From NCBI GenBank assembly GCA_014436445.1, contig GCA_014436445.1_4089.1: a stretch of DNA of 26,673 nucleotides. The stretch is one strand, 5' to 3'. Both the position numbers and the translations under genes were made by a program. Shown here piece after piece: positions 3,796-26,673 of this stretch. The notes under the pieces are model-generated. The model was not told the DNA's origin and searched no databases. It was given only the letters and a program-made list of their open reading frames with translations. The stretch comes from a phage. Position 1 is the stretch's first letter; the number at the start of each line of letters is the position of its first letter.

Positions 3796-3878
3796 AATTT
3801 TGTTTCCTTTTATTGTGGGGAGAACTATTCTCCCCTTGATGTAAACTATTATACAGTACTGATATACTTTGTCAATAC

Positions 3879-11525: not shown

Positions 11526-11608
11526 TTTGATTCTCCTAGTATCGGGGAGAACCATTCCCCCCCCCTCTATGTAAACAATTATACAGTACTGAAAACTAAT
11601 TGCAAGTA

Positions 11609-17752: not shown

Positions 17753-18019
17753 TTATTCAAGTACTGCAATCTTTTTAGTACTGTACACAGTAACGCGGTT
17801 GCCCTTGCGGTCGTGCTTTATTTCTACCACGCGACGCGATACACTATCAGGACGCTTTAAAGCAGATAGCCAGTACTGAATTGATCGGGCTGTACTTTGC
17901 TTTACTACGGCCCAACGTTTACCACGTTCAGATTGTACGCCCATATCTTTAAACGTCGCCCCGTCCTGGCGTGCGGCAATCCGAGCAAGTTCACGCGTTG
18001 CAAAGTATATAATATTCAT
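17753..18019 (-). CDS. hypothetical protein (88 aa), paralog of 5831..6226
   Basis: Track ORF 17753..18073 trimmed to the ATG at 18019 (MNIIYFATRELARIAAR...); promoter region paralogous to the one upstream of 5831..6226. Confidence 0.55.
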   Translation of the reverse strand: MNIIYFATRELARIAARQDGATFKDMGVQSERGKRWAVVKQSTARSIQYWLSALKRPDSVSRRVVEIKHDRKGNRVTVYSTKKIAVLE

Positions 18020-18101
18020 GCTGTTACCCCTATCGTTGTTGTATAAAAGAAATCTATTATAAAGTACTATCACCGTGCAATAGTACTTTTAATCTATTCT
18101 C

Positions 18102-18341
18102 TTACATTCCAACCATCGCCGCACGGATCGCAGTAGTGCTATACTTAAAGCCGTCCGGTGTTTTATCTTGTCCAGTCTGTTCTAAAAATAGCATCATATG
18201 ACGGGCCGCATCATTACGATTAGTGTTAGCGGCAATAAAGTCCTGGGCCAACCGGTATAATGATTCGTCGTTATTAATCCAAAGGCTTACATTCCATTGA
18301 GTTTTGTTTTTGTGTCCTAAGAACATTTTTGATTTAGCCAT
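18102..18341 (-). CDS. hypothetical protein (79 aa)
   Basis: Track ORF; AAGAGGA Shine-Dalgarno; leader hairpin GTGGGGAACTATTCCCCAC and TTGCAA/TATAAT promoter at 18362-18430. Confidence 0.6.
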   Translation of the reverse strand: MAKSKMFLGHKNKTQWNVSLWINNDESLYRLAQDFIAANTNRNDAARHMMLFLEQTGQDKTPDGFKYSTTAIRAAMVGM

Positions 18342-18435
18342 TTTTAAATCCTCTTAATTATAGTGGGGAACTATTCCCCACCTGATGTAAAGTATTATAC
18401 GCTTTTAAACTTAGTTTGCAAGTACTTTATTAAAC

Positions 18436-18798
18436 TTATTCGTAAATCTTGCCACTGTCAGCCCATACCAGGAAACGAGGCATATTATCCCATGCATCTT
18501 GTTTTAAGTTTAAGCCGTGCAATACTTCTGTACTTTCCATTCCTGGTACTGGCTTGCTATACACTGCAAACATTTCGCCCATGTACTGATAAGCCATCGT
18601 TAAATCAGTCTGGATCATCTTATGGATCATTGCATCCAGCATTGCAGTAGCGGCGTACTGTTCACGCTTAAGCGGCAACATTGCAATCAATTCCCGATAA
18701 GCTGCAATGTGAATCCGTACAGTCTCAGCGGGAAGATCTTTCATCTCTTCACGGAAAGAAACCAGGTTAAGCATGATAGTATTGATTTTAGTAGCCAT
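18436..18798 (-). CDS. hypothetical protein (120 aa)
   Basis: Track ORF; leader hairpin CGGGAGCGTCTCCCCCG and TTGCAA promoter at 18826-18890. Confidence 0.6.
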   Translation of the reverse strand: MATKINTIMLNLVSFREEMKDLPAETVRIHIAAYRELIAMLPLKREQYAATAMLDAMIHKMIQTDLTMAYQYMGEMFAVYSKPVPGMESTEVLHGLNLKQDAWDNMPRFLVWADSGKIYE

Positions 18799-19116
18799 CG
18801 TTTTAATCTCTTTTAAAAGTGAGTCGGGAGCGTCTCCCCCGTCTCGATGTAAAACATTCTACACCTTTCCCAATACTTTGCAAGTACTTTCTACAAATAC
18901 TTTTAAAATAGTTTTCTTTCTATATAGGAGTACTGGAACAATCCAGGGAGAACAATCTTTCAGTACTGAATCATTAAGATACCCGTAAAACGGCCTCAAT
19001 CGCATTCTAACGCATTAATACACCTAAGCTATACATTTGCACCGCCACCAGCTAACCAGGGCTTTACGGGCCGTTTAAACGCGTTAAATTATTTTCAATT
19101 ATTTTGTTTTTAGCTA

Positions 19117-19144
19117 TTGACTCAGCACCGAAAAAGCGTATAAT
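19117..19144 (+). promoter_or_regulatory. plus-strand promoter (TTGACT, 16 nt, TATAAT)
   Basis: Consensus elements within the non-coding block; no ORF downstream. Confidence 0.45.
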
Positions 19145-19332
19145 TACTACATAGACGCGAGAAAGCGGATACCCCTGGGGGTGCGGAATTACGCCCAAAA
19201 TTCAGTAAATTTAAAAAGGATACACTCCCGCACCTTAGCAGGTCATAGCACTTTCTCAGTACTGAATCATAGTACCATAGTACGCCCCAGGATGGCAAGC
19301 AAATTAATTAAAACTTTTTGCGTTTAGGGTAT

Positions 19333-19360
19333 TGCTTTATTTTTTCAGTACTGCTATAAT
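19333..19360 (+). promoter_or_regulatory. plus-strand promoter (TTGCTT, 16 nt, TATAAT)
   Basis: Followed by GAGAAAGACTCTAGCCCACCGGGTGCATAA, i.e. the same leader motif as at 15552. Confidence 0.45.
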
Positions 19361-19457
19361 ATTTTCATCAAGTCGAGAAAGACTCTAGCCCACCGGGTGC
19401 ATAATTGTATCTAAAATTCAGTACTAGATTATTTTTTAAAATTATTCATCCAGGCGG

Positions 19458-19486
19458 TTGACATTGCCCCCAGTTTATTAGATAAT
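19458..19486 (+). promoter_or_regulatory. plus-strand promoter (TTGACA, 17 nt, GATAAT) reading toward the iteron array
   Basis: Consensus elements; downstream lie a GGGGAAACCATCCCC hairpin and the iteron-like array. Confidence 0.45.
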
Positions 19487-19580
19487 GATTCCAGATTCAG
19501 AAAAATCTAACTCCAGATACTGCGGGGAAACCATCCCCACGCGGTAGGGGAACTATTGGAAAAACAAAATAAAATTTTGA

Positions 19581-19712
19581 TTTAGCCGTCTATACTTCCA
19601 GACGTGTAACCATCTAGCCGTTTAGCCGTCCAAACGTCTAGCAGTACAGCCATCTAGAAATCTAGCCATCCAGCCGCCTAGAGGGATAGCCATCTTTACT
19701 TCCAGCCATCTG
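19581..19712. repeat. iteron-like array of about 8 YAGCCRTC octamers with interspersed GTCTAG/CATCTAG
   Basis: TTTAGCCGTC occurs exactly twice (19581, 19621); TAGCCGTT, CAGCCATC, TAGCCATC (twice), CAGCCGCC and CAGCCATC follow within about 130 bp of non-coding DNA. Confidence 0.55.
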
Positions 19713-19881
19713 GAGGTCTAGACATCTCTACGTCTAAATTTAACCTAGGGTTACTACGCCCAAAATCCGTCAGTACTATACCATAGATCTATCTTTAAGA
19801 AGGGAGTATTCAGTACTCCCACAATAGCCCTCACTGTTACTGTAGGAGGATGAAGACTATCATGTAGTACTGAATACTGTT

Positions 19882-19911
19882 AGTGGATAATCCACCAGCT
19901 TGTGCTGGTGG
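19882..19911. promoter_or_regulatory. DnaA-box-like 9-mer inside palindrome TGGATAATCCA, followed by hairpin CCACCAGCTTGTGCTGGTGG
   Basis: AGTGGATAA matches the DnaA box (TGTGGATAA, the complement of TTATCCACA) at 8 of 9 positions; an 8-bp-stem hairpin lies immediately 3'. Confidence 0.3.
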
Positions 19912-20398
19912 CATAATGCGTTAGATTAATATCAGTACTGCTACCATTCTGTTAATAACAGTACTGTTCATATTACGAAAAAAGAGGTTATAAAAAGATG
20001 TACCACCCATAGGAGGAACTATCCTTTCAGTACTGTCTCACGACAGGAGGTAGAGTGAATGAATTGTTTGCGGCAACTCATCTCTCTATGTAGAACATTA
20101 TACAGTACTGAATCATAATGTCAATAGCTTTCTTTCATTATTCAGTACTGAAATCGTATAATCTGTATCGCTACAAAACTCATTATATCCCACAAATCCT
20201 ATATGTCCCAACGTAAATTTCAACTTTCGAAGATCCAACTTTTATTTCATAGGTACTCCAAAATTTTTAGGATCGAGATTTAGGATGGAGTACTAACCAA
20301 CTTTTTGCTGGAGCCTCAAGGGGTAATTGAATTTTACCCCGAAGGGTAAAGGGGTAATTGAAATTAAGGTGAAAGTAATAATTCAGTACTAATCATTG

Positions 20399-20628
20399 CG
20401 TGATTACTTTTGATTACATTTGATGTAATTTGCAAAATGGAAAAGGAGCTTGGAAACTACAAAGTACGGCAGACTTCCTCTGCCTACTTAGTGGCATATC
20501 AGTACTGCTACGTTCTTGATTAAACGTGAACATTCCTGTACTCTAGTACTCAATACTAATCACTACCGTGCGTATGAATGATTACATAAATGTTTATATA
20601 TGATTACTTATGACTACCTATGATTACG
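20399..20628. repeat. two clusters of helically phased (A)TGATTAC repeats (20399-20428 and 20578-20628)
   Basis: GATTAC at 20401 and 20411 plus GATGTAAT at 20421; ATGATTAC at 20578, 20601 and 20621 plus ATGACTAC at 20611, with 10-bp spacing in the second cluster. Confidence 0.5.
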
Positions 20629-20743
20629 GGGTTTAGCCTGGGGAGAATCCTAGTGATCGCATTTGTCCAGGCTGAATTTTAACATATGCAACATATGTTA
20701 AAGCCTGTATAATGCTTCCACTACGGAGCTTCCCCTAGCTATA

Positions 20744-20944
20744 TTACTTCCTATATATAATCATTAAGATATAGTAGTACTGATTGTACTGTACATTCTC
20801 TTTAATATTATAAGGGTCTATAGCAATCTCGGTACATCTGTTAAATGCATATCTATTAAATGCCAGTGGAATTATAGATCTAATCCATACTTGTTCATTT
20901 TCTTTTAGTTTACTTATATAGAATTCTTTATGTTCTTTATTCAT
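20744..20944 (-). CDS. small-protein paralog array, member 15 (66 aa)
   Basis: Track ORF; N-terminus MNKEHKEFY, central Cys motif (NRCTEIAI), C-terminus YYILMIIYRK. Confidence 0.6.
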   Translation of the reverse strand: MNKEHKEFYISKLKENEQVWIRSIIPLAFNRYAFNRCTEIAIDPYNIKENVQYNQYYYILMIIYRK

Positions 20945-20949
20945 ATTAG

Positions 20950-21135
20950 TTAGTGTCTGTATATAAGTAATAGTAAGAATACGTACTGCACATCTTCATC
21001 TTTAGTATTGAGTACTGTACGTATTGCGTCATTAAACAAGAATATAGTACTTGGGTCATGAGAATTTAAAGGGGTTCTGGGTACGGCATGTTTGTAGTTC
21101 CCTTTAACAAATTGTGTGTAGTATTCTCTATGCAT
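20950..21135 (-). CDS. small-protein paralog array, member 14 (61 aa)
   Basis: Track ORF; MHREYYTQF...LLLLIYRH. Confidence 0.6.
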   Translation of the reverse strand: MHREYYTQFVKGNYKHAVPRTPLNSHDPSTIFLFNDAIRTVLNTKDEDVQYVFLLLLIYRH

Positions 21136-21136
21136 A

Positions 21137-21322
21137 TTAGTACCTATATATTAGGGCGAGAATGTAGTACAATTCATATGGAATGTAATTTGGGGTGATC
21201 GCACACTGTGTATGGTAAATGAATTGTTCGGTATTTTTCTTATCCTTGATATCTATTGGGATTTGTGGTATAAGCATTTGGGAGTTTAGATCGAGATGGC
21301 TTAAGTAGAATTCTTTATGCAT
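21137..21322 (-). CDS. small-protein paralog array, member 13 (61 aa)
   Basis: Track ORF; MHKEFYLSHL...QCAI...YYILALIYRY. Confidence 0.6.
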   Translation of the reverse strand: MHKEFYLSHLDLNSQMLIPQIPIDIKDKKNTEQFIYHTQCAITPNYIPYELYYILALIYRY

Positions 21323-21331
21323 ATTGTTCTC

Positions 21332-21520
21332 TTAGAATACGAAAGCTAGGTACAGGGTATGATACAGTACTCGATGATAGCTGTCAAAATCTAGTATACA
21401 TGCTTTAGTGCACATAGTAAAGTACACTTTATCATTTTGTGCATTGATACCGCGAGGTTTATCTAATAGATTAGTTCTGAGGTACATTGGGAAATATTTT
21501 GTGTAGTATTCTTTATGCAT
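21332..21520 (-). CDS. small-protein paralog array, member 12 (62 aa)
   Basis: Track ORF 21332..21565 trimmed to the family-conserved start MHKEYYTKYF at 21520; ends ...YHTLYLAFVF. Confidence 0.6.
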   Translation of the reverse strand: MHKEYYTKYFPMYLRTNLLDKPRGINAQNDKVYFTMCTKACILDFDSYHRVLYHTLYLAFVF

Positions 21521-21521
21521 G

Positions 21522-21704
21522 TTAGTACCTGAATATAAGTAGGATAGTGTTATATAGCTGGTCATAACTACTACTATTTTCTATACTTCGTTCTATGCAG
21601 TTATTGAATCCCAGTACTGCCAAATCGTTATCCATAGGGACTTTATATCTGGCGTAGTGTTCAAAAATGCTGGGGAGAAATTGTGTGTAGTATTCTTTGT
21701 GCAT
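21522..21704 (-). CDS. small-protein paralog array, member 11 (60 aa)
   Basis: Track ORF; MHKEYYTQFLP...NNCIERSI...ILLIFRY. Confidence 0.6.
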   Translation of the reverse strand: MHKEYYTQFLPSIFEHYARYKVPMDNDLAVLGFNNCIERSIENSSSYDQLYNTILLIFRY

Positions 21705-21705
21705 A

Positions 21706-21891
21706 TTAGTACCTATATATTAGTAAAAGGATGTGATACAGTACTCGATTATAGTCGTCAATATATATCGAGGATTTAGTGCACTGAATGAAGTAGTCTT
21801 TTTCGTAGTTTTTTTCTATACCCAATGGTTCTGTTGGTACAAGGTGTTGGAGATACATTGGGAGTTTCTCTATGTAGTATTCTTTATACAT
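21706..21891 (-). CDS. small-protein paralog array, member 10 (61 aa)
   Basis: Track ORF; MYKEYYIEKLPMYLQ...QCTKSSI...YHILLLIYRY. Confidence 0.6.
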   Translation of the reverse strand: MYKEYYIEKLPMYLQHLVPTEPLGIEKNYEKDYFIQCTKSSIYIDDYNRVLYHILLLIYRY

Positions 21892-21900
21892 ATATTATCC

Positions 21901-22101
21901 TTAGTACTGGAACGCAAGGTACAGGGTGTGGTAAAGTTGTACTTGATAATTGTTTTCATTAGCTTCTTCATTAAGTACTTGTTCAGTACATGTACGGAAG
22001 TAATCAGCTTCATATATACAGTCAATACCGCGAGGTTCATCTTCTAATAGATTTCCTTGTAGAAACTTTGGTAGTTCTTTTATGTAGAATTCTTTATACA
22101 T
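21901..22101 (-). CDS. small-protein paralog array, member 9 (66 aa)
   Basis: Track ORF 21901..22164 trimmed to the family-conserved start MYKEFYIKELPKFLQ at 22101; ...RTCTEQVL...YHTLYLAFQY. Confidence 0.6.
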   Translation of the reverse strand: MYKEFYIKELPKFLQGNLLEDEPRGIDCIYEADYFRTCTEQVLNEEANENNYQVQLYHTLYLAFQY

Positions 22102-22765
22102 AGTTTGTAATATACGTAATGAGGTGATGCATTTTCTTATCAGTACTGATAATTTCCTGTACATGTTTTGTCAGATTGTACGCGTTTTTATAGAGTACTG
22201 GATTATCGATTACAGTACTGTACATGAATAGTTCTTCTTCCTGTAGTTCTTTGTGTTCTAGTTCTTTGAGGAATTGTAGTACTGTATCAGTTTCTTCTGT
22301 ACGTTGTGCTTGCCAGAAGTGCATATTCTCGTGTACTTTTTCTGCATCAGTAGAGTATATGCCACCCATTTGGAATTGTGCTGTATTGACATCGTGGGAG
22401 GTGTTACAATTCCCGAAGAAGTATGTATTCCCGAAGTATAGCATTAAAGTGCACGGGGTATTATCCAACTGCATATTGATGATGAAGGATGCGTTCTTTA
22501 GTACCTTTGTGCTCGTATTAGTACTCAATACTTTTAAATCAGTATTATAGATATTCATATAATGAACAGCTATATTATTTTTCTTCATGTACAATTCAAG
22601 GTTCTTTGATACGTTAACTCCATTTGTACTGGATTTTTCCTTTTTATTTCGTTTCTTTAGTACATTCGGGTGATACGTATATGCAGATGTAACTGATTCT
22701 GCCTGAATACTATTGAGGTACTTAAAGTGCTTAAGGTATTGTTTGCTGTGTGCATTAAGTTTCAT
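22094..22765 (-). CDS. 223-aa protein with an HExxH motif, embedded in the paralog array
   Basis: Track ORF; AAGGAAA Shine-Dalgarno; contains AEKVHENMHFWQA (HExxH, the zincin metallopeptidase signature); does not share the array-family termini. Confidence 0.55.
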   Translation of the reverse strand: MKLNAHSKQYLKHFKYLNSIQAESVTSAYTYHPNVLKKRNKKEKSSTNGVNVSKNLELYMKKNNIAVHYMNIYNTDLKVLSTNTSTKVLKNASFIINMQLDNTPCTLMLYFGNTYFFGNCNTSHDVNTAQFQMGGIYSTDAEKVHENMHFWQAQRTEETDTVLQFLKELEHKELQEEELFMYSTVIDNPVLYKNAYNLTKHVQEIISTDKKMHHLITYITNYV

Positions 22766-22775
22766 TTGGTTTCCT

Positions 22776-22955
22776 TTATATAGATGCCAGGGCGAGGATT
22801 TCCCTGTAGGGATTATCTTGTGTTAGTACAGCATAAATGCAGTTATTGAGATTAATATTTTTAGTACTTTTTGTTCCTAGTTTGTAGTACTTCACGAAGG
22901 TGTCGTACATGAAACGGTCTTTTATGGTTATACGTTCTCTATAGAATTGTTGCAT
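22776..22955 (-). CDS. small-protein paralog array, member 7 (59 aa; MQQFYRERITIKDRFMYDTFVKYYKLGTKSTKNINLNNCIYAVLTQDNPYREILALASI)
   Basis: Not in the track (59 aa). AAGGAA Shine-Dalgarno; central NNCIYAVL and C-terminal ILALASI fit the family. Confidence 0.5.
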   Translation of the reverse strand: MQQFYRERITIKDRFMYDTFVKYYKLGTKSTKNINLNNCIYAVLTQDNPYREILALASI

Positions 22956-22963
22956 AGTATTCC

Positions 22964-23146
22964 TTAAATAGCGATTAGTTTCATTACTTCTCTGTATGTG
23001 TACTTTTCGTTTTGTGCATCTCTTGTGACGACATATAGGAAGGTGTGTTTATCTTTTTTGTTCCCGCAATTGTAGAAAATATTGAACTTATTGAAGTTGA
23101 ATCTTTCGGCGTGTTGTAGTTTAGTTAAATAGAATTCTATATTCAT
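22964..23146 (-). CDS. small-protein paralog array, member 6 (60 aa)
   Basis: Track ORF; MNIEFYLTKL...YNCGN...MKLIAI. Confidence 0.55.
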   Translation of the reverse strand: MNIEFYLTKLQHAERFNFNKFNIFYNCGNKKDKHTFLYVVTRDAQNEKYTYREVMKLIAI

Positions 23147-23154
23147 TTTCTTCC

Positions 23155-23340
23155 TTACATTTCAATAAGTTTAAGTACTGCTCGGTACGTGTACTTAGTT
23201 GTTAGTGCTTCTTTAATAGAAATACAGAAGTAATGTTGTTTGTCTCTTATACTGCCGCGTTTGTAGTACCACACATGGGAGTTGTGACTGTACTTGTCTC
23301 TGTCGGATAGTTGTTGGTAGTAGTAGCTTATATGATTCAT
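23155..23340 (-). CDS. small-protein paralog array, member 5 (61 aa)
   Basis: Track ORF; MNHISYYYQQL...FCISIKEAL...LKLIEM. Confidence 0.55.
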   Translation of the reverse strand: MNHISYYYQQLSDRDKYSHNSHVWYYKRGSIRDKQHYFCISIKEALTTKYTYRAVLKLIEM

Positions 23341-23392
23341 TATAATGTAATTAGCCTTACTATATTAAAGTACTCGGTCCCTGGTGTACCTT

Positions 23393-23587
23393 TTAGAACT
23401 TAAAGATGAGGTTCAGGATAGAGCGGTACTTAGTTGCAGGGAACGTATGTTCTATTGCATAACGTGTCACCATCCTGAAATCGTAATTATAATACAGATT
23501 ATCCTTTCTCATAGGTGGTGCTAAAGAGAATGATAGCTGTTCTTGTTTGGGTAGTTTACTACAATAGAAATCTTTATGATTATTCAT
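23393..23587 (-). CDS. small-protein paralog array, member 4 (64 aa)
   Basis: Track ORF; MNNHKDFYCSKLPKQEQ...ILNLIFKF. Confidence 0.55.
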   Translation of the reverse strand: MNNHKDFYCSKLPKQEQLSFSLAPPMRKDNLYYNYDFRMVTRYAIEHTFPATKYRSILNLIFKF

Positions 23588-23789
23588 AGAAATATATTAG
23601 TCCTATTAAACCAGAGTACATAATATTTTTGTTATTACATTCGATTGCTTCTAGAGTACTACGTATACAATTATTAAAGCAATCTCTGGCGTGTGGTGTA
23701 TCTATACTTAAAGGTGATACACTCCTTAGAAACAATTGTTCTTCGTTGCTAAGGTATTTGGTGTAGAATTCTTTATGTTCAGTATTCAT
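23580..23789 (-). CDS. small-protein paralog array, member 3 (69 aa)
   Basis: Track ORF; MNTEHKEFYTKYLSNEEQ...NNCIRSTL...LIGLIYFYE; 8-nt overlap with member 4. Confidence 0.6.
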   Translation of the reverse strand: MNTEHKEFYTKYLSNEEQLFLRSVSPLSIDTPHARDCFNNCIRSTLEAIECNNKNIMYSGLIGLIYFYE

Positions 23790-23790
23790 A

Positions 23791-23994
23791 TTAGTACTCG
23801 ATTAAAAGGGCAAGGATATAATAGTATTGCATACTTTCTGCCCCTTGTAAAGCATTTCTTATGATATTATTCCTGTACGAGTTCAGGAGTTTAGGACAAC
23901 GTTTGTAGTGTATAATAGTATTTTGTGTATACAGTAGGCTTTCTCGTAGACCTTTTGTTGGTAGTGCATCGATGTAGTACTGTTCGATATTCAT
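23791..23994 (-). CDS. small-protein paralog array, member 2 (67 aa)
   Basis: Track ORF; MNIEQYYIDALP...YYILALLIEY. Confidence 0.6.
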   Translation of the reverse strand: MNIEQYYIDALPTKGLRESLLYTQNTIIHYKRCPKLLNSYRNNIIRNALQGAESMQYYYILALLIEY

Positions 23995-24218
23995 ATAGAT
24001 AGCAGTACTAAGATTTTTGATAATTGTTTATTGCTATCCCCGCAGATGTTGCTGTGTAAAATACTCACAATGAGGGTATCAATTGCATTGTTCATCATAA
24101 GGGTGCATCCTGGACTATTATAATTTTTTAGCTCAATTAGCCACGAACTATCCGAGAGAAACTCCCCGTACTCTAGTTCATTTAGAGTATTGAGGTAGTA
24201 CTTAAGAGTATTTGTCAT
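23991..24218 (-). CDS. small-protein paralog array, member 1 (75 aa), first gene after the array promoter
   Basis: Track ORF; AAGGAG Shine-Dalgarno; MTNTLKYYLNTL...PGCTLMMNNAI...ILVLLSI. Confidence 0.55.
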   Translation of the reverse strand: MTNTLKYYLNTLNELEYGEFLSDSSWLIELKNYNSPGCTLMMNNAIDTLIVSILHSNICGDSNKQLSKILVLLSI

Positions 24219-24243
24219 GTGTAGTTCTCCTTATATTCCTTCT

Positions 24244-24272
24244 ATAGTACAACAGTACTGAAAGGATGTCAA
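24244..24272 (-). promoter_or_regulatory. promoter for the paralog array (TTGACA, 17 nt, TACTAT)
   Basis: Minus-strand TTGACA at 24272-24267 and TACTAT at 24249-24244 in the divergent intergenic region; no further consensus promoter was seen inside the array. Confidence 0.45.
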
Positions 24273-24274
24273 GG

Positions 24275-24304
24275 GTTTTCTTTATTGGGTAAATATGATA
24301 TAAT
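24275..24304 (+). promoter_or_regulatory. candidate TG-extended -10 promoter (TGATATAAT) for the first RCC1-like gene
   Basis: TGATATAAT at 24296-24304 about 16 nt before the GGAGGG Shine-Dalgarno; the -35 is poor. Confidence 0.35.
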
Positions 24305-24320
24305 GAATAAGGAGGGAATT

Positions 24321-25469
24321 ATGTTACCTTTTGCAAGAATGGTTAAGTACGGGAATATTGCCCCTGGTGATGATGGACGTTTTAAAATATATTCCAGTGA
24401 TTCCATGTATCTTCATGATACTTATACTGATAAGTTGTATGCATCTTCTGCGACGAATTGGGGTACTGGAACAGGTGTAGCATCGAGTAAATTTATTCTT
24501 TGTGCGGAGAATGTTAAACGAGTTCTATTGGAAGATAACAGTAGTGATTGTCAATTGTATGAAGAGAAAGGTACTGGAAAAGTTTTTATCACTGGTAACA
24601 CGAAGGCATTCACTGGTGTAACTGATAGAAAAACTTTGTGGACGGACTGTACTACGTGGATAACATCAAGTGGTATTAATGTTTCTGATATAAAATACAT
24701 GAGTAGTTTTTATGATATGAAGGTGAATTTGATAACAAACGATGGTACATTGTATTGTTGTGGAGCTAACAATATATCGAACATATCATCATTTGGTGAT
24801 GGCACAAACATTAATTCTTTTAACACATTCAAAAGAGTAGATACTATAACTTCGGTTAAAAAGGCAGTTGGTAACATTTATTTGCGAGAAGATAATACTT
24901 TATGGGGTTGTGGTTTTAACTATTACTACCAGTTGGGCACGGGTAATCAAACTTCTATTACTGGGGTGACGATGATTTCTTCGGATGTTATAGATTTTAA
25001 TGTAAGTTATCAGAGTACATTTTTTATCAAATCGGATAATAATTTGTACGCTTGTGGTAAACAGTTCGGTGCACAATATGGGAACGAATTTGGTACAGGT
25101 GGTACTTCTACATCTACAGATATACAATATCAAACTCCGACATTATTGAGTTCAGGAGTTTATACTCTATATACTTGTGTTGGTAACATGGCATCACATA
25201 TTGTCAAAGCAGATGAAGTTCTATATGCTTCTGGAACGAATGGGTTTGGGCAATTAGGTGTTGGTAATAATAATAATCAGTACTCCTATACTCCTTCTTA
25301 TACTTCTTTTAATAGTTCGTGTGATTTGGTACGCAGTCCATCTGGATCACTTATACTTACGGATACTGGAAAATTATATTATTGTGGCATTGCAATAGTA
25401 GTAATGGGTGGTATTTCTGGACAGAACGTTCTTAATTATACAGAAGTAGATATGTCATTTATACAATGA
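24321..25469 (+). CDS. RCC1-like repeat (beta-propeller) protein, paralog 1 (382 aa)
   Basis: Track ORF 24285..25469 trimmed to the ATG at 24321 (GGAGGG Shine-Dalgarno; identical start context to paralog 2). Repeats fit the RCC1 blade signature: TLYCCGANN...FGDG, TLWGCGFNYYYQLGTG, NLYACGKQFGAQYGNEFGTG, VLYASGTNGFGQLGVG, KLYYCG. Confidence 0.7.
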   Translation: MLPFARMVKYGNIAPGDDGRFKIYSSDSMYLHDTYTDKLYASSATNWGTGTGVASSKFILCAENVKRVLLEDNSSDCQLYEEKGTGKVFITGNTKAFTGVTDRKTLWTDCTTWITSSGINVSDIKYMSSFYDMKVNLITNDGTLYCCGANNISNISSFGDGTNINSFNTFKRVDTITSVKKAVGNIYLREDNTLWGCGFNYYYQLGTGNQTSITGVTMISSDVIDFNVSYQSTFFIKSDNNLYACGKQFGAQYGNEFGTGGTSTSTDIQYQTPTLLSSGVYTLYTCVGNMASHIVKADEVLYASGTNGFGQLGVGNNNNQYSYTPSYTSFNSSCDLVRSPSGSLILTDTGKLYYCGIAIVVMGGISGQNVLNYTEVDMSFIQ

Positions 25470-25477
25470 ATTAATAT

Positions 25478-25506
25478 GCCAGTACTTGATACTGGCTTTT
25501 CTTTTT
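25478..25506 (+). terminator. intrinsic terminator
   Basis: GCCAGTACTTGATACTGGC stem followed by TTTTCTTTTT directly after the stop at 25469. Confidence 0.6.
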
Positions 25507-25541
25507 GTATTAAATATAGTATAATGAATAAAGGAGGAATT

Positions 25542-26673
25542 ATGTTACCTTTTGCAAGAATGGTTAAGTACGGGAATATTGCACCTGCACAAATCGGTAG
25601 ATATAAAATATACAGTTCATCTTCTTCACTATTTTTATTGGATACCCAAAAACACAATTTGTACAGTACATCGAACATTAATTATACTAGTGGTACAGGT
25701 AATGTTGAGCCTAAATTTGTGTTAAGTGCAACTAATGTTAAAAGATTATTACTATCTGATAATAGTTGTGCAATGCAAATATATGAAGATATGAATGGGC
25801 GTGCAGCGATGTGTGGCACAAGAACTGCATATAGTGGGGTTGCAAATGATAATGTACTGGTATGGACGGATTGCACTACATGGTTCACAAATGTAGGGTT
25901 GAATGTATCAGATATTCAGTACATGTCTGGTTTTTATAATCTGAAACTAAACATAGTTATGAATAATGGTGATTTGTGGTGTAGTGGGAAAAACAACACT
26001 ACTACTATGTCATCATTTGGTAATAGCACAAATATCGATTCATTCAATCAGTTTACCAAAATAACAACAATATCAAATGTTATTAAAGCCACCGGGAATA
26101 TATACTTATGTGCAGATAATACTTTATGGGGATGTGGTTTTAACTCTTACTATCAGTTAGGGACAGGTAATCAAACATCCAGTATTAATTTGATTATGAT
26201 GGCTTCTAATGTTATCGACTGTAATGTTGGTCTTCAAAATACTTATTACTTGACTAATAATAAAGAACTTTATGGATGTGGTACACAATTTGGTACAACT
26301 TACGGGAATGAATTTGGAACAGGAAGGCAGGGAACAGCAATACAATATAAGACTCCTACTATAATTTTCACAAATGCAGATGGTATGGCTGTTTGTGTCG
26401 GTAATATGTCTACTCATGTTATTCAATATGATAAAGTTTTTAGTTCTGGTAATAATGCCCTTGCACAGTTGGGTGTAGGCAACCGTGACAATGTGTACAC
26501 ATATACACAATCATTTGATAATTTCAAAATGGATTCTTCTATAGTACGTGCAAACGTTGGAACATTGATAATGACAGCGGACAATAAGTTATATTACAGT
26601 GGGAGAAATGATGTTGTTATGGGTGGAACAAGCACACAATACACGACGGTTTTCAGTGAAGTTAATATGTCAT
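25542..26673 (+). CDS. RCC1-like repeat protein, paralog 2 (5' portion, runs off window end)
   Basis: ATG at 25542 after an AAGGAGG Shine-Dalgarno; first 14 residues MLPFARMVKYGNIA identical to paralog 1; repeats TLWGCGFNSYYQLGTGNQTS and ELYGCGTQFGTTYGNEFGTG; open to the window end. Not in the track because incomplete. Confidence 0.65.
   Translation, partial: MLPFARMVKYGNIAPAQIGRYKIYSSSSSLFLLDTQKHNLYSTSNINYTSGTGNVEPKFVLSATNVKRLLLSDNSCAMQIYEDMNGRAAMCGTRTAYSGVANDNVLVWTDCTTWFTNVGLNVSDIQYMSGFYNLKLNIVMNNGDLWCSGKNNTTTMSSFGNSTNIDSFNQFTKITTISNVIKATGNIYLCADNTLWGCGFNSYYQLGTGNQTSSINLIMMASNVIDCNVGLQNTYYLTNNKELYGCGTQFGTTYGNEFGTGRQGTAIQYKTPTIIFTNADGMAVCVGNMSTHVIQYDKVFSSGNNALAQLGVGNRDNVYTYTQSFDNFKMDSSIVRANVGTLIMTADNKLYYSGRNDVVMGGTSTQYTTVFSEVNMS

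Follow-up and report, generated by a model that had tools for sequence, protein, structure and literature searches.

A recombining tandem array of small paralogous genes beside the terminal repeat of Asteriusvirus jumbo phages

Jumbo phages carry hundreds of genes without assigned function, and a single locus can pose this problem in concentrated form: what are fourteen small, strongly diverged genes lined up one behind the other, and what might they do? The locus considered here lies at positions 20744-24218, on the minus strand, of a phage contig of 26,673 nucleotides (nt), referred to as the window, that is, the whole stretch of DNA that was analysed. Listing of open reading frames (ORFs) and direct translation recovered 14 small ORFs of 59-75 amino acids (aa) at this locus, plus one ORF of 223 aa. 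A reading made from the letters alone (the sequence-only reading) had described the small genes as a tandem array of diverged paralogs interrupted by one unrelated protein; all 14 were present where it had placed them, with the true start revised for two. Megablast of positions 20000-25000 traced the window to an Asteriusvirus jumbo coliphage of the 121Q group, matching 37 phage records, all from jumbo myoviruses of Escherichia coli or Salmonella within the genus Asteriusvirus, with phage 121Q the closest (97.6% identity). Together, our analyses lend good support to a descriptive picture in which the array is one operon encoding one superfamily with a new small helical fold, whose repertoire is changed by recombination next to a terminal repeat.

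Are the small proteins truly related to each other? We numbered the genes along the direction of transcription, from g01 (23991-24218) to g14 (20744-20944), and compared their products all against all with phmmer. Nine proteins (g03, g04 and g08-g14) formed cluster A, with mutual matches at expectation values (E) of 1e-3 to 1e-15, and three (g05-g07) formed cluster B, with mutual matches at E 1e-5 to 1e-10; g01 and g02 gave no significant pairwise match to other members. All nine cluster A proteins matched phrog_11711 over their full length (E 6.5e-9 to 3e-28). In contrast, g01, g02 and g05-g07 matched no PHROG at E<=1 and were tied to the others solely via profile-profile comparisons. Profiles for this purpose were rebuilt with the arrays of ten related phages, including the divergent A4 and JNE01, in which we found bridging sequences that match two profiles at once. 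With these enlarged profiles, hhalign aligned cluster A over its full length both with cluster B (94.8% probability, E 5e-8) and with the g02 type (93.4% probability, E 2.6e-7). Because of these two links, we assign 13 of the 14 proteins to one superfamily on sequence comparison. The remaining protein, g01, aligned with the g02 type at 21% probability (E 1e-3, 62 collinear columns), scoring above 150 out of 150 column-shuffled controls, and is a probable fourteenth member. The proposed array of diverged paralogs was thereby borne out, with homology far above chance in the phmmer, PHROG and hhalign comparisons.

The arrangement of the genes is compact. At the upstream end, g01 (75 aa), the probable divergent member defining its own type, overlaps g02 (67 aa, 23791-23994), which represents the g02-type subfamily, by 4 nt (ATGA). 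Two core members of cluster A follow, g03 (69 aa, 23580-23789) and g04 (64 aa, 23393-23587), which overlap by 8 nt. Beyond a 52-nt gap (23341-23392) come the subfamily B genes g05 (61 aa, 23155-23340), g06 (60 aa, 22964-23146) and g07 (59 aa, 22776-22955), the gene of the 223-aa protein (22094-22765) and the rest of cluster A: g08 (66 aa, 21901-22101), whose ATG overlaps the 223-aa gene by 8 nt, g09 (61 aa, 21706-21891), g10 (60 aa, 21522-21704), g11 (62 aa, 21332-21520), g12 (61 aa, 21137-21322), g13 (61 aa, 20950-21135) and g14 (66 aa). For g08 and g11, the mechanical ORFs, of 77 aa in the latter case, begin upstream of the real starts, which were set by alignment to the family hidden Markov model (HMM) and by the 121Q annotation. 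Intergenic spacing ranges from -8 to +10 nt, so that the tight packing claimed earlier (gaps of 1-10 nt or short overlaps) held everywhere except at the 52-nt gap between g04 and g05. In many members, the terminal codons (AGG TAC TAA) are separated from the next ATG by 1-9 nt and provide an AGG or AAGGA Shine-Dalgarno element; as the end of one gene supplies the ribosome-binding site of the next, the array appears arranged for translational coupling, and its spacing fits one polycistronic, translationally coupled operon. No further family members were found in the remaining 23 kilobases (kb) of the window.

How widely is the family distributed? A profile search of 5.8 billion proteins returned 53 hits among 132 candidates, and all hits with a named source came from Asteriusvirus-type phages. 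HMMER, run exhaustively over 1.84 billion cluster representatives, yielded only 29 clusters with lengths of 59-69 aa, except for one truncated 41-aa protein, and the most divergent clusters traced to phages A4 and JNE01. Complementarily, tblastn against 50,697 phage records matched 36 records, all Asteriusvirus. Profile building and database searching, both suggested by the sequence-only reading, thus found the members to be detectably homologous and recovered relatives from Asteriusvirus only; as judged by these searches, the small-protein family is lineage-specific. The small proteins had no matches in Pfam, NCBIfam, PADLOC or PDB sequences, an Rfam scan of positions 18000-25000 gave no match, and literature searches found no description of the family or the array. 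As had been anticipated, the family could not be named from sequence: its sole match, PHROG 11711, is listed as 'unknown function' and carries neither function nor description.

Does the array change between phages? HMM scans of nine loci, together with the annotations of two more, gave member counts for 11 phages and answered the earlier suggestion that array size be compared among relatives: it ranges from 14 members, in the window and UE-S1, through 15 in SD-15_S21, A4 and JNE01, 16 in 121Q, 18 in phAPEC6 and 20 in fEgEco12, to 21 in JP4, ~21 in CMSTMSU and 22 in BF17. Most phages retain a skeleton of g01, g02, g05, the 223-aa gene, g09-g11, g13 and g14. Around it, the B block comprises between 2 and 6 copies, additional A-type cassettes are gained or lost, and the g03-type gene is differently placed in BF17, fEgEco12 and CMSTMSU.

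Comparison with phAPEC6, which is 98.8% identical to the window in the shared parts, resolved two deletions in the window. In the first, three genes were lost by a crossover within the conserved KEFY codons: the first 27 nt of g14 match the 5' end of the phAPEC6 gene 'x1' and the remainder matches phAPEC6 g14, so that the window's g14 is a recombinant chimera of two paralogs. The second removed most of a g02-type gene, whose intact counterpart is 'x13' of phAPEC6, via an AAGGT microhomology, and the 3' remnant of this paralog accounts for the 52-nt gap between g04 and g05. The breakpoints lie in shared segments of 5-27 nt at gene junctions. The stop/start junctions are covered by direct repeats of 40-83 nt (60-86% identity), on which recombination can act. 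That this is not an array of clustered regularly interspaced short palindromic repeats (CRISPR), as the sequence-only reading had argued, was confirmed: the units are protein-coding genes of ~190 nt, the repeats are these imperfect gene junctions, and the ratio of non-synonymous to synonymous substitution rates (dN/dS) is below 1. On the evidence of the aligned loci, gene number and order have been remodelled by unequal homologous recombination between conserved junctions. By functional analogy and not by homology, the array counts as a recombination-driven terminal multigene family, and it appears to be a lineage-specific accessory family in a plastic region of the genome.

Public records cover the array unevenly. 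In phAPEC6, 8 of the 18 members are annotated, in BF17 about 12 of 22, and CMSTMSU contains frameshifted or fragmentary members, consistent with sequence-quality problems.

If genes come and go this readily, do they have a function at all? The array could be largely non-adaptive, consisting of duplicates that are made and lost by unequal recombination near the terminal repeat, have little or no function and are tolerated since there is room to spare in a jumbo capsid. The free variation in copy number and order, the chimeras and remnants, and the likewise tandemly amplified flanking RCC1-like genes would all suit such a history. Selection can be gauged from dN/dS, which we calculated by the Nei-Gojobori method for positional orthologues. 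Most groups fell within 0.10-0.74 (median near 0.37), compared to 0.20 for an RCC1-like neighbour and 0.15 for a gene in the terminal repeat; exceptions resting on few changes include three groups with no or almost no non-synonymous change. The higher median is in line with a non-adaptive array, but ratios below 1 in most orthologue groups are not, and neither are ORFs that have stayed intact, with length and core preserved, even between the most distant phages of the genus (<50% identity), conserved promoter and coupling signals, or the skeleton of positional orthologues (g01, g02, g05, g09-g11, g13 and g14) kept in most phages. We consider a largely functionless array unlikely: by these ratios, the genes are real and under purifying selection, weaker than that on their neighbours. 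As for the arms-race selection invoked in the sequence-only reading, orthologue dN/dS speaks neither for nor against it.

What kind of protein is being maintained? AlphaFold2, supplied with a 21-sequence alignment of paralogs, modelled g09 as a small helical fold with a predicted local distance difference test (pLDDT) score of 91.7, comprising short N-terminal helices (residues 3-8 and 12-15), a loop and a helical hairpin (28-43 and 47-60). Foldseek found no PDB hit for this model at E<=1 and matched only the family's own members in BFVD. Structure prediction and fold comparison, which had also been recommended, thus delivered a confident helical fold without significant PDB or BFVD relative. 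Column statistics over 99 distinct cluster A sequences revealed an invariant Tyr6 and further conserved positions at K3, E4, Y/F5, L10, P22, F34, C37, T/I38 and I/L42, followed by a last helix (51-59) that is almost entirely hydrophobic and leads into R/K and Y; the remaining positions are mostly near maximal entropy. Common to the proteins are a hydrophobic core that is conserved, the motif K-E-(Y/F)-Y near the N terminus and, at the C terminus, a hydrophobic helix that closes with (I/L)-(Y/F)-R-Y. Because a monomer of 61 residues is too small to bury completely a helix with hydrophobic residues on almost every face, the model suggests that the C-terminal helix mediates oligomerisation or docking onto a partner. 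The isoelectric points of the array proteins span 4.4 to 9.6, and tyrosine makes up 11% of their residues versus 4.9% in neighbouring ORFs. No transmembrane segments or signal peptides were detected in the array proteins; the best 19-residue Kyte-Doolittle mean was <=1.18, so no segment resembles a membrane span.

These protein features bear on the immunity reading put forward in the sequence-only reading, by which the array would consist of toxin/immunity or superinfection-exclusion cassettes. Polymorphic toxin loci can carry arrays of orphan immunity genes encoding small, diverse, tandem proteins, and the array is similar by analogy, its proteins being small, diverse and tandem as well. It encodes one superfamily, however, with no alternating toxin/immunity pairs; no toxin-like domain is present, and the HExxH motif in the 223-aa protein is unconserved; envelope exclusion would call for transmembrane segments or signal peptides, which the proteins lack; PADLOC and Pfam gave no matches; and the phage is strictly lytic. 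We therefore regard such cassettes as highly improbable.

Two further properties of the array DNA were noted. Between 21000 and 24200, the plus-strand GC skew turns positive though the genes remain on the minus strand. An inversion or replication signal at the flip near 21 kb was considered and rejected, as amino-acid composition accounts for the skew: Gly, Ala, Val and Asp are scarce in the array proteins (12.8% of residues versus 27% in neighbouring genes), Tyr is abundant, and C is favoured over G at third codon positions (skew -0.36). Two plus-strand ORFs inside the array, of 104 aa (21733-22047) and 108 aa (22224-22550), were treated as antisense artefacts.

When would the proteins be made? 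A promoter scan and direct reading placed a sigma-70-like promoter, TTGACA-17-TACTAT, on the minus strand at 24244-24272, with CAGTACTG (24253-24260) in its spacer, followed by the Shine-Dalgarno sequence AAGGAG and the ATG of g01. The -35 element has the consensus sequence and the -10 element is close to it. Across 10 phages of the genus, the divergent JNE01 and A4 among them, the -35 element is invariant and the -10 element nearly so, and the 102-base-pair (bp) intergenic region upstream of g01 is 91% conserved, above the array genes. The earlier claim of a single promoter was right in that one genus-conserved, sigma-70-like promoter lies 5' of g01, but a further promoter-like site, TTGACA-17-TATCAT, is located inside the array at 21387. 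The T4-type late motif TATAAATA occurs 0 times in the whole window, compared to 5.8 expected.

The position of the array within the genome is informative as well. The termini of fEgEco12 have been set by PhageTerm and restriction digests, giving a direct terminal repeat of 20,993 bp (PMC13070987). By blastn, nt 1-2804 of fEgEco12, its physical left end, align to window positions 20488-17744. The homologue of this end, at 20468-20488 and including a hairpin, GGCAGAGGAAGTCTGCC, at 20468-20484, marks the terminal-repeat boundary, and by this alignment window positions 1-20488 correspond to the ~21-kb terminal repeat. With the fEgEco12 end mapping to 20488, the array stops about 250 bp before the right terminal repeat, placing it just outside the repeat and co-oriented with the repeat's many small genes. 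On its other side, the first RCC1-like gene of a tandem array (24321-25469, plus strand) points away from the small genes; in the annotation of 121Q, the counterpart stretch is likewise a run of 'hypothetical protein' genes, then RCC1-like genes in divergent orientation.

Published data on related phages add to this picture. In phage CBB, RpoD-like promoters cluster on short hypothetical genes, which were proposed to be early host-takeover genes (PMC5259590). The virion proteome of phAPEC6, comprising 62 proteins, includes the RCC1-like gp549 and gp551, whereas gp540c-gp548c, eight annotated array proteins, are absent (PMC7247149), a negative that covers the annotated members, 10 of the 18 being unannotated in that genome. 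Because the promoter, the missing late motif, the position next to the repeat, the CBB precedent and the absence from the virion come together, we favour early, non-structural expression.

The same evidence can be held against a different use of the proteins, namely as injected internal head proteins resembling the internal proteins (IPs) of T4, with the N-terminal motif targeting the capsid and the bodies inhibiting restriction or defence. T4 IPs are highly diverse defence proteins with only the capsid-targeting sequence in common (PMC3012670), and this diversity beyond a shared targeting sequence is paralleled by the conserved N terminus and diverged body of the array proteins. The locus is also polymorphic in cassette fashion and adjoins RCC1-like genes with products in the virion. 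Yet none of the eight annotated array proteins was among the 62 virion proteins of phAPEC6, though a protein as small as 4.7 kDa was detected. No (L/I)-x-E cleavage motif is conserved after the N-terminal motif, AlphaFold2 puts the N-terminal helix inside the fold (pLDDT ~89), the C terminus is conserved too, and the promoter is sigma-70-like, with the late-type TATAAATA absent. An internal head protein role is, in our view, very unlikely.

The element found in the promoter spacer recurs elsewhere. The palindrome CAGTACTG occurs 34 times in the window versus 0.44 expected, for example at 1554-1561, 3854-3861, 11584-11591, 20103-20110 and 24253-24260; 30 of the 34 copies lie on the terminal-repeat side (1-20500), in coding and intergenic DNA, and about six, including some on that side, sit in the spacers of TTGACA…TATAAT promoters, several of them perfect. 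A 12-nt palindrome, TTCAGTACTGAA, occurs 11 times with <=1 mismatch (0.11 expected). CAGTACTG has the look of an operator bound by a dimeric protein, or else of a promoter element specific to the phage.

Directly downstream of the array, positions 18800-20744 contain ~1.9 kb without an ORF >=80 aa, yet are ~90% conserved in all Asteriusvirus. Besides the terminal-repeat boundary (~20488), this region holds degenerate 8/16/32-nt repeats of the CAGCCATC type (19647-19736), 10-nt TGATTAC-type repeats (20401-20424 and 20599-20627) and a promoter matching at 12 of 12 positions (20124->20097), and is a candidate packaging, replication or regulatory region. Within it, 52 nt (19137-19188) are 92% identical in the Salmonella jumbo phages Munch, 7t3 and SE_PL, which are otherwise unlike this region, and overlap a plus-strand promoter-like site (19117-19144). 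A small RNA at 19150-19270 was considered and dropped, the fold z-score of -1.96 (121 nt) being unremarkable. On the opposite flank, the RCC1-like genes (24321-26673, plus strand; locus L001, 7691-11949) are tandem paralogs themselves, numbering at least 4 in 121Q and eleven in phAPEC6.

What is the role of the larger gene in the middle of the array? The 223-aa protein matches PHROG 29152, which has no assigned function, and was found only in Asteriusvirus phages; its gene is single-copy, has a dN/dS of 0.44 and always lies between the B block and the downstream A block (11 of 11 phages, including the most divergent). It had been labelled an HExxH protein. The window protein does read HENMH, but its orthologues read HDNMH, HDNMY, HNNMY or HDKMY, with E replaced by D or N and the second H by Y, and JNE01 is without the motif, whose presence in the window is thus a chance match. 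As HExxH is not kept among orthologues, we rejected a zincin metalloprotease; the protein has no peptidase match in Pfam or NCBIfam and no recognisable domain. A fused family member in its C-terminal 50 residues was rejected as well: a weak hit to the subfamily B HMM was accompanied by a profile-profile probability of only 11%, falling to 3% with enlarged profiles. The description of the interrupting protein as unrelated to the small family therefore stands, in that no relationship was demonstrable at profile-profile values of 3-11%. AlphaFold2 (21-sequence alignment) gave an unusable model with a pLDDT of 39.6.

The constancy of this gene invites the idea that the 223-aa protein works with the small proteins as exchangeable partners or adaptors, the two together serving a process internal to the phage, such as regulating development or assembly, and not host antagonism. 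Its single copy at the same place in all 11 phages and its 8-nt overlap with the next small gene would be in keeping with a joint role, and the common terminal motifs of the paralogs could contact one partner. An interaction with the small proteins is a supposition, though, for a protein with no recognisable domain and a low-confidence model, and the array persists where the protein is truncated. In Salmonella-infecting relatives that retain the array, the gene is shortened to 190 aa in SD-15_S21 (locus L003, 3892-4464) and to 137 aa in SD-2_S15 (P0075). We judge an adaptor role of this kind unlikely.

What, then, do the small proteins do? The reading we prefer, at slightly less than an even chance, is that they are early accessory proteins on a common scaffold whose variable surfaces bind different host or defence targets. 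Host RNA polymerase would transcribe the array early in infection, along with the small genes that run in the same direction in the neighbouring terminal repeat. The products would be non-structural, cytoplasmic accessory factors built on one scaffold, with variable, tyrosine-rich surfaces that bind different host or defence targets; the phage would therefore carry a changeable repertoire, with individual members dispensable. One surface shared by the members, used for docking or oligomerisation, may be built from the conserved motifs at both termini.

Several observations weigh against this preference. The small proteins had no matches in anti-defence or defence libraries, and no significant PDB match by sequence or fold linked them to characterised anti-defence inhibitors. 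Orthologue dN/dS gave no signal of positive selection, the exceptions, g09 near 1.0 and one small group at 2.5, resting on few changes. Early timing is read from promoter sequence, literature searches found no Asteriusvirus transcriptome, and these phages encode their own RpoD-like sigma factor (PMC11895373), so that the promoter class could be phage-sigma dependent and not early. Target binding by the array proteins is something we infer from sequence and model, and the N-terminal motif could owe part of its conservation to the DNA itself, as a signal for starting translation or a substrate for recombination.

A bolder version of the preferred reading, which we hold to be rather unlikely, casts the small proteins as miniature binding proteins on a previously unseen helical scaffold, each neutralising a different host defence or host factor, and the array as an anti-defence family reshuffled by cassette recombination. 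If true, phages would possess a multigene family of a new kind, directed against defence and comparable to those at the genome ends of African swine fever virus (ASFV) and poxviruses; a defence-related phenotype, if found, would raise the interest of the array. Attention to jumbo phages has mostly gone to single ORFans, whereas here one family occupies 14-22 genes per genome and has a confident fold without relative. The conserved promoter, the clear and datable gain, loss and chimera events among isolates and the natural variants of 14-22 copies allow comparison, and make the locus well suited to testing whether phages, like large eukaryotic viruses, meet variable hosts with paralog repertoires that can expand. 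Annotation also benefits, as many members are missing from GenBank records and labelling the 223-aa protein 'HExxH' misleads.

How does the array compare with known systems? At or within their terminal repeats, SPO1 (gp37-60), Twort-like phages (Tre genes) and T5 (pre-early genes) carry runs of small genes that follow strong promoters of the sigma-70 type. The array shares with these host-takeover modules, and with the proposed one of CBB, the many co-oriented small genes, the sigma-70-type promoter and the terminal-repeat position; such modules, however, consist mostly of unrelated singletons, whereas the array is one expanded paralog family just outside the repeat. With the T-even IP locus it has in common cassette-like, small, diverse proteins, a short conserved N terminus and exchange by recombination among related phages (PMC3012670). 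It differs in having no sequence or fold similarity to the IPs, in the absence of its annotated proteins from the phAPEC6 virion proteome and of a protease cleavage motif, and in conserving the whole fold and the C terminus instead of an N-terminal tag alone. In ASFV (MGF110/360/505) and in the 'genomic accordions' of poxviruses, terminal tandem families arise by unequal recombination and are linked to host range and immune evasion. Here, the likeness lies in tandem paralogs beside terminal repeats with isolate-varying copy number; the proteins are unrelated, the hosts belong to another domain, and host antagonism would carry over to the array only by analogy. In their behaviour, the T-even IP locus and the ASFV and poxvirus terminal families appear to be its closest analogues, alike in organisation and dynamics and not in sequence.

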